This document shows positions 44,723 to 63,938 of a stretch of DNA of 64,000 bases, one piece after another. A program made the translations under genes and the position numbers. Within the stretch, counting starts at the first letter, position 1, and the number at the start of each line of letters is the position of its first letter. The stretch spans positions 51,521 to 115,520 of the forward strand of contig JAFQDF010000035.1 of the NCBI GenBank assembly GCA_017416185.1. The letters run 5' to 3'. Below the pieces are notes generated by a model that had not been told where the DNA came from, searched no databases, and was given only the letters and a program-made list of their open reading frames with translations. Origin of the DNA: Clostridia bacterium (GTDB lineage: Bacteria > Bacillota > Clostridia > Oscillospirales > CAG-272).

Positions 44723-44830
44723 ATGTATAATGTAAAATGTAGAATGTAAAATGAAGGAGATTTTTGTTGCTTAAAGCAACAAAAATTCCATCCATAATTA
44801 TACATTGTACATTATACATTTTATATTCTT
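44721..44830. repeat. 7-mer-armed palindromic element, copy F (AATGTAN x4 / TACATTN x4)
   Basis: The left arm AATGTAT AATGTAA AATGTAG AATGTAA AATGAAGGA starts in the rsmD stop codon. Core hairpin GATTTTTGTTGC-ttaaa-GCAACAAAAAT. Then TCCATCCATAATTA TACATTG TACATTA TACATTT TATATTC. Confidence 0.85.
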
Positions 44831-53289: not shown

Positions 53290-53305
53290 ATATAGTATAA
53301 TATAT

Positions 53306-53495
53306 TGAATACACTTTGTGTATTCAGCTAAATTCGCTATGCGAGCTAAATGTGCAGAGCACGCTAAATTACTTCGTAGCTAAATTGACCTTCGGTCAGC
53401 TGATATGCGAATTTAATTTAGCTGTTTCACAGAAACAATTTAGCTATCACGCAAAGCGGGATAATTTAGCTTTGCACGTAAGGGCAAAATTTAGC
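53306..53495. repeat. hairpin-string palindromic element, copy B (AGCTAAATT / AATTTAGCT linkers)
   Basis: Lead hairpin TGAATACAC-tttg-TGTATTCA. Then 4 x GCTAAAT(T) linkers separated by mini-hairpins (TCGC/GCGA, GTGC/GCAC, TAC/GTA, TGACC/GGTCA). Centre AGCTGATATGCGAATTTAATTTAGCT. Then mini-hairpins separated by 3 further AATTTAGC(T) linkers. Confidence 0.85.
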
Positions 53496-53535
53496 CCAAC
53501 ATAAGATTTTTAAGATAATTGAGGACATATCGTTA

Positions 53536-60871: not shown

Positions 60872-62128
60872 ATGATCAACAAGAGCTATGAATTAGCAAA
60901 AGAGATCTATGCGGCACAGGGTATTGATACCGATGCTGCGATCGCTAAGCTTAAGAACATTCCCGTTTCACTTCACTGCTGGCAGGGTGACGACGTTATC
61001 GGCTTTGACCACGACGGCCCCCTTAACGGCGGTATCCAGACCACAGGTAACTATCCCGGCAAGGCAACCACTCCCGAACAGCTTATGGCTGATATGGACA
61101 AGGTTCTTTCCCTCTGTCCCGGTACCAAGAAGATCAACGTTCACGCTTGCTACGCTATCTTTGAGGACGGCAAGTTCGTAGACCGCGATAAGCTCGAGCC
61201 AAAGCATTTCGCTAAGTGGGTAGAGTTTGCAAAGGCACACGGCTGCGGTCTTGACTTCAACCCCACCTTCTTCTCCCATCCTATGCAGAATGACGGTCTT
61301 ACCCTTTCCAGCCCCGATGAGAACGTAAGAAAGTTCTGGGTAGAGCACGGTAAGGCTTGTATCCGCATTTCCGAGTATTTCGCAAAGGAAACAGGTATGC
61401 CCTGTGTTATGAACATCTGGATCGGCGACGGCTTCAAGGATATTCCCGCTGACCGTATGGGTCCCAGAATGAGATATAAGCAGTCTATCGAGGAGATCCT
61501 CTCCGAGCCTTATGACTTCAACCTCGTTAAGCCCTGCGTTGAGTCCAAGGTATTCGGTATCGGTGTTGAGTCTTACACTGCAGGCTCTGCAGAGTTCGCT
61601 CTCTCCGTTGTTGCGGCAAATGCCGATAAGTGCATTCCCCTTATGGACAACGGTCACTACCATCCCACCGAGGTCGTTTCCGACAAGATCCCCGCACTTC
61701 TTTGCTTCTTCCCCGAGATCGCACTCCACATCACCCGTGGTGTTCGTTGGGACTCCGACCACGTTGTTCTCTTTGACGACGAGACCAAGGAAATGGCAAA
61801 GGAGATCGTTCGTTGCGACGCTCTTGACCGTGCATACATGGCTCTTGACTACTTTGATGCTTCCATCAACCGTATCTCCGCTTGGACCACAGGCTTCAGA
61901 AGCTGGCAGAAGGCTCTGCTTGCGGCTATATGTACTCCCAACGCAGCTCTCAAGGAGCTTCAGAATGCAGGCAACTTCACCAAGCTTATGGTTATGCAGG
62001 AAGAGGCTAAGATGCTTCCCTTCGGCGCAGTATGGGCTAAGTACTGTGAGGAATGCGGCGTAGCAGGCGACGCTTCCTGGTTTGACGAAGTAGAGAAGTA
62101 CGAAACTGAGGTACTTTCTAAGAGATGA
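60872..62128 (+). CDS. rhaA: L-rhamnose isomerase
   Basis: 418 aa. SLHCWQGDDV, HYHPTE and WDSDHVV motifs of RhaA. Confidence 0.9.
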   Translation: MINKSYELAKEIYAAQGIDTDAAIAKLKNIPVSLHCWQGDDVIGFDHDGPLNGGIQTTGNYPGKATTPEQLMADMDKVLSLCPGTKKINVHACYAIFEDGKFVDRDKLEPKHFAKWVEFAKAHGCGLDFNPTFFSHPMQNDGLTLSSPDENVRKFWVEHGKACIRISEYFAKETGMPCVMNIWIGDGFKDIPADRMGPRMRYKQSIEEILSEPYDFNLVKPCVESKVFGIGVESYTAGSAEFALSVVAANADKCIPLMDNGHYHPTEVVSDKIPALLCFFPEIALHITRGVRWDSDHVVLFDDETKEMAKEIVRCDALDRAYMALDYFDASINRISAWTTGFRSWQKALLAAICTPNAALKELQNAGNFTKLMVMQEEAKMLPFGAVWAKYCEECGVAGDASWFDEVEKYETEVLSKR

Positions 62129-62364
62129 ATTGAACCCTATGGGTTCATAAATTGAGCCTGGCGGCCCATGAATTGACAACTTTGTTGTCATGAATTGTGT
62201 CACAAGGACACATTAAGGAAAGTTTTTGCCTTTAGGCAAAAACAATTCTAATTGAATTAGTTTTCGCCCAAGGGCGAAAAGTTACCTTAATGCACCGTAG
62301 GAGCAATTCATGACCGTAGGTCAATTCATGGTGAAACCAATTCATGGCGAAGCCAATTCATTTA
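62125..62364. repeat. hairpin-string palindromic element, copy A2 (CATGAATTG / CAATTCATG linkers)
   Basis: It has the same order of modules as 2516..2757: 4 linkers + inserts, CATTAAGG, core AGTTTTTGCC..GGCAAAAAC, second hairpin TTTTCGCC..GGCGAAAA, CCTTAATG, then 4 inserts + linkers. The first linker contains the rhaA TGA stop. Confidence 0.9.
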
Positions 62365-63457: not shown

Positions 63458-63464
63458 TATTAAT

Positions 63465-63700
63465 GAAAGCCGTCCTTCGGGACGGCTTTCACGATATAAA
63501 TCCCTTTCGGGATTTGCGATATTCCCTATGGGGAGCGATATGCCTAACGGCGCGATATGTCCTGCGGGACGTGGGGGGATTTATATCATATCGCGTCTGC
63601 TTTAGCAGATATATCGCTTTTATCAAAGATAAAAATATCGCATTTGACCGAAGGTCAAATATATCGCAATTTGTATCCTAAGGTTACAAATTTTATATCG
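63465..63700. repeat. hairpin-string palindromic element, copy C (GCGATAT / ATATCGC linkers)
   Basis: Lead hairpin GAAAGCCGTCC-ttcg-GGACGGCTTTC. Then 4 x (G)CGATAT linkers with mini-hairpins (AATCCC/GGGATT, TCCC/GGGA, GCC/GGC, GTCC/GGAC). Centre GTGGGGGGATTTATATCATATCGC. Then 4 mini-hairpins separated by ATATCGC, the last linker being the variant TTATATCG. Confidence 0.85.
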
Positions 63701-63736
63701 TATTCCCCGTATGATAATACCTATTGAAATAACACC

Positions 63737-63765
63737 TTGACATAATTTCTTAATTGTGATAAAAT
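63737..63765 (+). promoter_or_regulatory. near-consensus sigma-A promoter
   Basis: TTGACA - 17 nt - TAAAAT. The predicted start site lies just before the long leader stem. Confidence 0.6.
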
Positions 63766-63769
63766 GTTC

Positions 63770-63919
63770 TTGCGACACATCTGAATATTTTAACCATTAA
63801 GGTGCATTTTATATTGGTAAAAATGCATCCTCTATTTTCGCACCTAAATGGTTTGAAAGATGTGTCGCAGCATTCGAGGCTCTGCGTTTTTCGTGCGTAG
63901 CTTCGGCTGCGCACTTTTT
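63770..63919 (+). promoter_or_regulatory. structured 5' leader (riboswitch/attenuator candidate, class not recognised)
   Basis: P1 is TTGCGACACATCT (63770-82) paired with AGATGTGTCGCAG (63858-70). P2 is AACCATTAAGGTGC (63792-805) paired with GCACCTAAATGGTT (63840-53). An alternative pairing is TGCATTTT/AAAATGCA. A terminator and then AAAGGAGG-ATG follow. Confidence 0.5.
63893..63919 (+). terminator. leader terminator
   Basis: GTGCGTAGC-ttcg-GCTGCGCAC (9-bp stem with a C(UUCG)G loop) followed by TTTTT. It lies 8 nt before the SD of the next gene. Confidence 0.65.
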
Positions 63920-63938
63920 ATATTTAAAGGAGGAAAAT

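Follow-up and report, generated by a model that had tools for sequence, protein, structure and literature searches.

Anatomy of the E4 element

Near the end of the window (the whole 64-kb stretch of DNA that was analyzed), a gene for a SIS-domain protein closes with a TAA stop codon, and six bases later begins a 238-base hairpin-ladder element that we refer to as E4 (window 63464-63701, + strand). The element opens with a lead hairpin, H0 (TGAAAGCCGTCC-TTCG-GGACGGCTTTCA, 63464-63491), whose 12-bp stem abuts the first linker so closely that its last base is also the first base of that linker (position 63491). The first-pass annotation had described H0 as a GC-rich hairpin that lacks a U-tract, and indeed no T-run follows it and the terminator scan was silent. 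Four forward linkers then alternate with four small hairpins. Linker L1 reads ACGATAT (63491-63497) and is complementary to ATATCGT at 63695-63701; L2, L3 and L4, read directly from the sequence, are GCGATAT and start at 63516, 63535 and 63552. Between and after them lie H1 (63498-63515, AAATCCC TTTC GGGATTT, 7 bp), which is the conserved hairpin of the family at this position, H2 (63523-63534, TCCC-TATG-GGGA, 4 bp), H3 (63542-63551, GCC-TAAC-GGC, 3 bp) and, 3' of the fourth linker, H4 (63559-63570, GTCC TGCG GGAC, 4 bp).

A 17-nt center (GTGGGGGGATTTATATC, 63571-63587) separates the two halves of E4. Its last 12 bases, GGGATTTATATC (63576-63587), copy the 3' arm of H1 plus ATATC and are complementary to 63493-63504. 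The 3' half, also on the + strand, begins with inverse linkers R1 to R4 (ATATCGC, starting at 63588, 63611, 63635 and 63661; region 63588-63667), between which lie H5, H6 and H7 with stems of 6, 7 and 8 bp. H8 (63668-63692, AATTTGTATCC TAA GGTTACAAATT) follows with 10 bp and one mismatch, so that the lengths given earlier for the 3' hairpins hold; H8 is an extra unit that is missing from the family consensus. The element closes with a fifth inverse linker, R5 (ATATCGT, 63695-63701), which complements the odd first linker exactly, and R5 pairs with L1 (63491-63497) in both the centroid and the minimum free energy (MFE) folds. The inverted linkers are thus exact, as had been claimed, for ATATCGC against GCGATAT and for ATATCGT against ACGATAT. 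The four GCGATAT-type forward linkers counted earlier are present, but the inverse set numbers five rather than four because R5 had gone uncounted, which makes the layout 4 + 5 instead of 4 + 4.

The layout of E4 is far beyond chance. Across both strands of the 64-kb window GCGATAT occurs at 21 sites versus 9.1 expected, and seven of the 21 are crowded into 152 nt (63516-63667), where three + strand sites precede four - strand sites. As RNA, positions 63455-63720 fold at -106.1 kcal/mol (z = -8.83), and none of 200 shuffled sequences folded as well. Because the sequence of E4 is identical across four independent assemblies, it is no assembly artefact.

An open reading frame of 72 codons had been called within the element (63463-63681) and dismissed as not credible, a judgment with which we concur. 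An ATG-to-stop frame is present mechanically, but its product has no family in Pfam, its tblastn similarity to 26 homologous elements is not frame-conserved and switches frames within single elements, and stop-free stretches are about equally long on either strand. The chance that the frame encodes a protein is close to nil; it is an artefact of the repeats and no gene.

H8 resembles a 19-bp palindrome, TTGTAACCTAAGGTTACAA, which it matches with one mismatch at window 63671-63689. Three copies of the palindrome lie in the next intergenic region (L001 15158-15305), upstream of a rhamnosidase gene and over the -35 boxes of GTTACA-16/18-TATAAT promoter-like sites. One could read these matches as a sign that E4 as a whole is an array of iteron- or operator-like sites in double-stranded DNA at which a regulator of the rhamnose cluster binds. 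That reading is very improbable given that the palindrome lies outside the family plan, that the linkers are spaced 17 to 27 bp apart and hence unphased, and that the same architecture stands beside unrelated genes in many genomes. Judging from the sequence, H8 is probably a DNA operator of the rhamnose-cluster regulator that is not part of the array.

Relatives of E4 in the window and in other genomes

In a collection with one genome per species, a search for three GCGATAT linkers returned at least 119 loci. Among the matches listed, the true elements were all from metagenome-assembled genomes of gut or rumen Clostridia (Ruminococcaceae, Oscillospiraceae, Acutalibacteraceae and 'Eubacteriales'), and 27 complete elements were parsed. 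Loci outside Clostridia (Chloroflexota, Arthrobacter and others) went unrecognized by a covariance model, which was applied to 100 of the at least 119 loci, and seem to be chance matches. In viral contigs a loose three-linker pattern hit 120 loci, none with the architecture; the pattern is too permissive there, and the hits give no sign of a phage link.

In nearly all of the 27 parsed elements, forward and inverse linkers number four each. The family plan consists of H0, four linker-plus-hairpin units, a center that repeats the 3' arm of H1 (followed by ATATC) and four inverse linkers with hairpins between them. The H0-type hairpin, 7-19 bp long and usually closed by UG..CA, ends 0-1 nt before L1 in 24 of 25 members, and a U-tract follows the lead hairpin in none of 25 copies. 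H1 is conserved in sequence (AAATYCC/GGRATTT), H2 and H3 are very short, and H4 is GC-rich. Otherwise the hairpin sequences vary freely with their pairing kept, and the linkers are constant.

The covariance model (R1), for which the window was excluded and 18 elements from other genomes of gut and rumen Clostridia were used, scored E4 at 146.8 bits (E = 4e-39). The same model, based on foreign GCGATAT elements only, also finds an element with the linker GCTAAAT in the window (E2, model match 53295-53501, 77.8 bits), in keeping with the first-pass annotation's view that E4 has the same architecture as the other hairpin strings of the window. Sequence and model scores together place E4 in a widespread intergenic family of gut Clostridia whose members are relatives of Gut-1.

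A k-mer screen and direct reading located three further elements in the window, all in the sense orientation: E1 (2485-2756, linker ATGAATTG), E2 (53306-53495, linker GCTAAAT) and E3 (62125-62361, linker ATGAATTG). All three follow the same plan as E4, and E1 and E3 have in common an 85-nt core of three hairpins; the first linker of E3 supplies the stop codon of rhaA, and the ribosome-binding site (RBS) and start codon of the next gene lie close downstream of each of the three elements. A hairpin-less sibling is located between an rsmD-like gene and coaD (44723-44822), where four ATGTAWA heptads pair with TACATT heptads into a plain stem with a 7-nt periodicity (ΔG -38.8 kcal/mol, z -8.95), capped by a core of AAGGAG plus hairpin similar to that of E1 and E3. 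Five copies thus lie in the 64-kb window, and a sixth, E5 (L001 15033-15182), lies just outside, about 3.5 kb past the window end and 3' of a gene for an LRR/SLH surface protein. E5 has inverse linkers only (ATATCGC three times and ATATCGA) and a lead hairpin near-identical to that of E4, and E4 and E5 are paralogous modules that bracket the LRR/SLH gene.

Five flavors have forward and inverse linkers that complement each other exactly: GCGATAT, GTGATAT, GCTAAAT, ATGAATT and GTGAATT. The most frequent number of units per module is four. Forward-only or inverse-only arrays exist as well (L159, L167, L211 and E5), so the ladder is the commonest arrangement and not an obligatory one. The linkers within a module may be identical because they pair in trans, because their microhomology serves the exchange of cassettes or because the module arose recently.

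Some loci carry tandem modules of mixed linker flavors that lack inverse partners (L159 1383-1600, L206, L233 and L234); in one example four GCGATAT units are followed by four ATGAATTG units. Another recurring feature, found in hairpins of the 3' half in loci such as L151, L182 and L155 and not in E4, is CGAGC-loop-GCGAG, which places tandem sheared G.A pairs two bp below the loop and might be a candidate protein-binding module. In 0.9 Mb of fetched loci, all six genes for PF05635 proteins (23S rRNA intervening-sequence proteins with a four-helix bundle) start within about 20 nt past a GCGATAT ladder (L135, L155, L164, L182, L187 and L192), with varying upstream neighbors (rumA and livF); gene and ladder seem to move as a pair, or the ladder seems to be the gene's leader.

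Relationship to Gut-1

At gathering thresholds, Rfam gave zero matches in the whole window. With the threshold relaxed to E <= 1, the sole match in the window was a weak one to Gut-1 (RF01706), at 27.8 bits (E = 0.28) against a gathering cut-off of 50, and it falls on the 5' half of E4 (E = 0.0013 in a 291-nt search). All of model positions 1-77 align there, and all three stems are formed. E4 therefore has the three tandem hairpins with a constant heptamer that mark Gut-1, with a linker two to three positions off the GUGAAAU type, and it shares the wider context of Gut-1, namely the lead hairpin, the downstream inverse linkers and the same genomes.

Gut-1 was described as three hairpins with GUGAAAU-like linkers; it was reported from human gut metagenomes only and no function was assigned (Weinberg et al. 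2010, Genome Biol 11:R31, PMC2864571). The Rfam entry dates from 2010 and places it in the class 'sRNA'. A full-text literature search on Gut-1 returned only the original description, with nothing on comparable hairpin arrays and no published function.

E4 and Gut-1 have in common tandem small hairpins with a constant 7-nt linker of the type RYGAWWU, a terminator-like hairpin ahead and their occurrence in gut Clostridia. They differ in the linker, which is GUGAUAU in Gut-1 and GCGAUAU in E4, and in extent, as the published model covers the three 5' hairpins only and includes neither H0, the duplication in the center, the inverse linkers and ladder, the flavors nor mobility. In addition, the E4 family occurs in genomes from ruminant, deer and horse gut, whereas Gut-1 was recorded from the human gut only. 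When the Gut-1 authors' alignment was read with its flanks, several seed members were found to have a lead hairpin, GYGATAT linkers, a center and four ATATCAC linkers. Since these flanked seed members carry the inverse-linker half, the published Gut-1 motif corresponds to the 5' half of an E4-type architecture. Gathering-level Gut-1 matches with the linker GTGATAT were also present in two of our loci, L211 and L216. These comparisons suggest that Gut-1 is the 5' half of one linker flavor (GUGAUAU) of a larger family.

In L216 a GCGATAT ladder (2340-2559, + strand) faces a bona fide Gut-1 GTGATAT ladder (2709-2920, - strand) at a distance of 150 nt.

Predicted ladder fold

Units between linkers fold better than chance (mean -3.0 kcal/mol versus -0.5 for shuffled sequences; n = 160). 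In the RNAalifold consensus, L1 pairs with the last inverse linker, L2 with the next, and so on, with the hairpins as side branches. Compensatory changes occur in 20 of 51 pairs, all of them located in hairpins, and include AU/GC and CG/UA exchanges in H1. In 18 elements the energy of the ladder equals or approaches the MFE (mean -60.2 versus -62.3 kcal/mol for the MFE), and in E4 the ladder is itself the MFE fold. Because no unpaired bases separate rungs from branches, each level of the ladder would be a perfect four-way junction. To our knowledge, no natural RNA has been described that resembles a stack of perfect four-way junctions with identical 7-bp rungs. The linker-linker pairs themselves are invariant within a flavor and so offer no within-flavor covariation, and the complementarity across flavors would also come from DNA inverted repeats.

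An alternative to the ladder is a 12-bp helix formed by the 3' part of L1 and the 5' arm of H1 with the center (63493-504 with 63576-87 in E4). This helix and the ladder are mutually exclusive. It is 98% paired across 18 elements and contains five pairs with compensatory changes, and none of 500 shuffles reached its observed score. Overall it is predicted to be about 9 kcal/mol less stable than the ladder, and on the strength of these fold models it may represent a folding intermediate or a switch.

Another possibility is that the elements work in trans, either as small RNAs or as sponges for a protein or an RNA, with single-stranded linkers that serve as binding sites or pair with other molecules. 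Forward-only and inverse-only arrays, whose linkers are unable to pair internally, fit such a role, as do the modal number of four units per module and the presence of a separate promoter at some copies. Yet most copies have neither promoter nor terminator of their own, at least five linker flavors (four of them in one closely related genome pair) would have to serve a single protein partner, and a ladder at or near the MFE would hide the linkers. We therefore regard a role in trans as quite unlikely.

Large and highly structured RNAs are known from Firmicutes, such as ROOL, GOLLD and OLE, which are single conserved genes rather than dispersed mobile modules. No sequence or Rfam model match to any of the three was found in the window.

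Strand preference and transcriptional context

Folding energy does not differ significantly between the strands overall (p = 0.36). Hairpins of the 5' half fold equally on either strand, with 350 of 359 pairs being Watson-Crick, and a 5' half this close to pure Watson-Crick pairing fits palindromes at the DNA level as well as RNA. An asymmetry emerged when pair types were counted explicitly, and in the 3' half only. Its hairpins contain tandem G.A/A.G pairs in 23 of 78 units, with the mirror T.C in none, and G.U exceeds A.C by 11 to 3, which argues that one strand is functional. It coincides with the sense strand of the gene upstream.

The orientation of the elements points the same way, copies being placed in sense right behind the stop codon of a gene. 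In the 27 copies, the upstream gene is co-directional in 21, opposite in one and without a near gene in five; between tandem genes, all 12 copies are in sense. The sense orientation persists even amid genes that are mostly on the opposite strand, as in at least seven loci, and since orientation there follows the upstream gene, an effect of the replication strand is argued against. Forward-only arrays have a weaker bias by crude ORF calls (15 co-directional, 9 opposite). At copies whose upstream gene is distant or points the other way, a sigma-70 promoter runs right up to H0. The sense rule has an exception in the Gut-1 ladder of L216 (2709-2920, - strand), which is oppositely oriented and has neither a co-directional gene upstream nor a recognizable promoter.

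The first-pass annotation had raised the idea that E4 acts as a terminator or insulator, in which case H0 and the hairpin string would stop or attenuate transcription of the SIS gene and shield the strong promoter that follows. That promoter is as it had been described, a near-consensus site at 63737 (TTGACA-17-TAAAAT, 11/12 matches) with an upstream TG. E4 does look like a Rho-independent terminator in that it places a strong, GC-rich, 12-bp hairpin a few bases past the stop codon, at the site where all sampled SIS orthologues that reach it have a classical terminator. Downstream of the SIS gene the scan placed the first other terminator at 63893, past the promoter at 63737, so E4 may contribute some termination. 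However, the hairpin of H0 lacks the U-rich tract of a Rho-independent terminator, the next 12 nt being ACGATATAAATC, and the missing tract is a trait of the family as given above. In 9 of the 27 copies no more than 60 nt separate the last linker from an RBS and start codon, so that these copies lead directly into a coding region with no room for a promoter; E2 lies inside the ybeY-era operon spacer (46 nt in relatives) with the Shine-Dalgarno sequence of era kept; and several other copies have a separate classical terminator of their own downstream. Since an RBS and start codon or a separate terminator comes after them, the elements appear to lie in transcribed 3'UTR or intercistronic space and not to be the terminator themselves. 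A terminator role for E4 is accordingly doubtful and, together with the shielding of the promoter, rather unlikely, which leaves the earlier reading as a whole partly supported. We infer instead that many copies are read through into the next cistron, and the read-through, processing and fold of the elements are to be taken as predictions throughout.

Turnover and mobility

E3 and E4 are absent at SIS orthologues that are 95, 83, 74 and 72% identical, each of which has a hairpin-plus-U-tract terminator directly past the SIS stop codon. A 90% identical SIS orthologue also lacks E3, on a contig that stops short of the E4 site. The order of genes, too, breaks there. For E2, the ybeY-era spacer is 45-49 nt long at Era orthologues that are 98, 96, 95, 93 and 84% identical, versus 246 nt with E2, which was inserted past a shared TAAATATAGTATAATATATT. 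E2, E3 and E4 are thus missing from relatives with 95-98% identical flanking proteins, a presence/absence polymorphism of the kind seen with MITEs. As for terminal inverted repeats, the inverse linkers act as nested ones and H0 has no mirror. Comparison of filled and empty E2 sites revealed no clean target-site duplication, the spacer being partly replaced, and the rhaA-SIS spacers with and without E3 could not be aligned and hence define no insertion boundaries.

Elements also duplicate and exchange parts. One genome has two copies, on separate contigs, with about 90% identity, and E4 is a mosaic: its H0 recurs in near-identical form in L216 and E5, H1-H2 to L197, and H5 and H7 to L216 and E5. 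The L216 genome has an Era protein 95% identical to that of the window. By this sequence comparison, E4-type elements are young, moving and recombining, and E4 is a recent insertion. The first-pass annotation had not included this point, nor the Gut-1 match, the copy of the H1 arm in the center, the fifth inverse linker and H8 as a putative operator.

In an 83% Era relative, the ybeY-era spacer contains a different insert of 334 nt (L269 1183-1500), which had been called as a 105-aa ORF and has no Pfam family.

Mobility raises the question of whether the elements are purely selfish DNA, spread by single-stranded DNA transposition or recombination in the manner of REP/RAYT or IS200/IS605 and without any role for the RNA. 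Recent gains and losses, duplicates within a genome, mosaic cassettes, near-perfect palindromes with very few G.U pairs and several coexisting linker flavors, as in REP families, would all be expected from such DNA. Against it speak an orientation that follows the immediate upstream gene even amid mostly opposite-strand genes, the dedicated promoters before H0 where no upstream gene reads in, and the strand-specific tandem G.A motifs. Moreover, no transposase was noticed beside any copy in an unsystematic look. We consider a purely DNA-level element unlikely, though worth bearing in mind.

The comparison with known repeats is instructive here. REP, BIME and REPIN sequences of Enterobacteria and Pseudomonas are also dispersed, short hairpin repeats at gene 3' ends that are co-transcribed, mosaic and strain-variable. 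In REP, however, the palindrome is conserved and the linkers vary, and the E4 family has the reverse, with constant linkers and palindromes that differ in every unit. The conserved, imperfect palindrome of 20-40 nt that is typical of REP and BIME is absent from the E4 family, which also differs from them in being strictly in sense. BOX elements of pneumococcus, Correia/NEMIS elements of Neisseria, ERIC and bcr1-type repeats are modular (boxA-boxB(n)-boxC), fold strongly and lie in transcribed intergenic DNA, as E4 does, but they have conserved modules, terminal inverted repeats and target duplications, and none is made of 7-nt repeats with hairpins of free sequence.

Proposed model and its significance

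Our best guess is that E4 is a transcribed, mobile, structural RNA module. In its full form, as a lineage-specific recent copy of a mobile hairpin-linker family that is transcribed and read through as an RNA ladder, we give this explanation about an even chance. E4 would be transcribed within the SIS mRNA, and during transcription the 5' domain would close first through the 12-bp helix of L1 and the H1 5' arm with the center. As the 3' half emerges, the GCGAUAU linkers would zip onto the AUAUCGC linkers, and the four resulting rungs of 7 bp, each flanked by one hairpin to the left and one to the right, would form a stack of perfect four-way junctions (about -83 kcal/mol). RNA polymerase would read through the element. 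E4 would accordingly be a non-autonomous mobile element of 3'UTR and intercistronic space, tolerated or selected only in sense within transcripts. Any effect on the host would be that of a very stable RNA fold, which may act as an exonuclease barrier or as a folding or translation buffer between cistrons rather than as a terminator. BOX and Correia elements are known to affect the stability of neighboring mRNA, and by analogy with them and with REP it is plausible that E4-type elements stabilize or insulate the cistrons on either side.

A more far-reaching proposal is that the family represents a new class of RNA-level mobile or 'programmable' elements. The heptamer linkers would then be pairing addresses that form the ladder within an element and pair in trans or over long range between modules, and their microhomology would drive the shuffling of cassettes and perhaps copying. 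Under this proposal, which we put forward as a long shot, a candidate trans pair would be E4, whose inverse linkers outnumber the forward ones by one, and E5 with its inverse linkers only, on the two sides of one gene.

If the modules are transcribed and stable, many housekeeping operons of abundant gut anaerobes would have altered 3' ends and intercistronic regions, and RNA nanostructures could draw on the modules as a natural scaffold. If the modules instead spread by an unfamiliar route, be it as DNA or as RNA, they would constitute a new kind of bacterial mobile element. The elements also produce spurious ORF calls in metagenomes.

A structured leader beyond E4

Downstream of E4, behind the 11/12 promoter, lies the leader of the LRR/SLH surface-protein gene (63770-63935). 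It contains a long closing stem (GCGACACATCU...AGAUGUGUCGC) with an inner hairpin and a classical terminator with a U-tract (63893-63914). The leader belongs to no Rfam family, and with a predicted fold of z = -5.8 it is a candidate riboswitch or attenuator.
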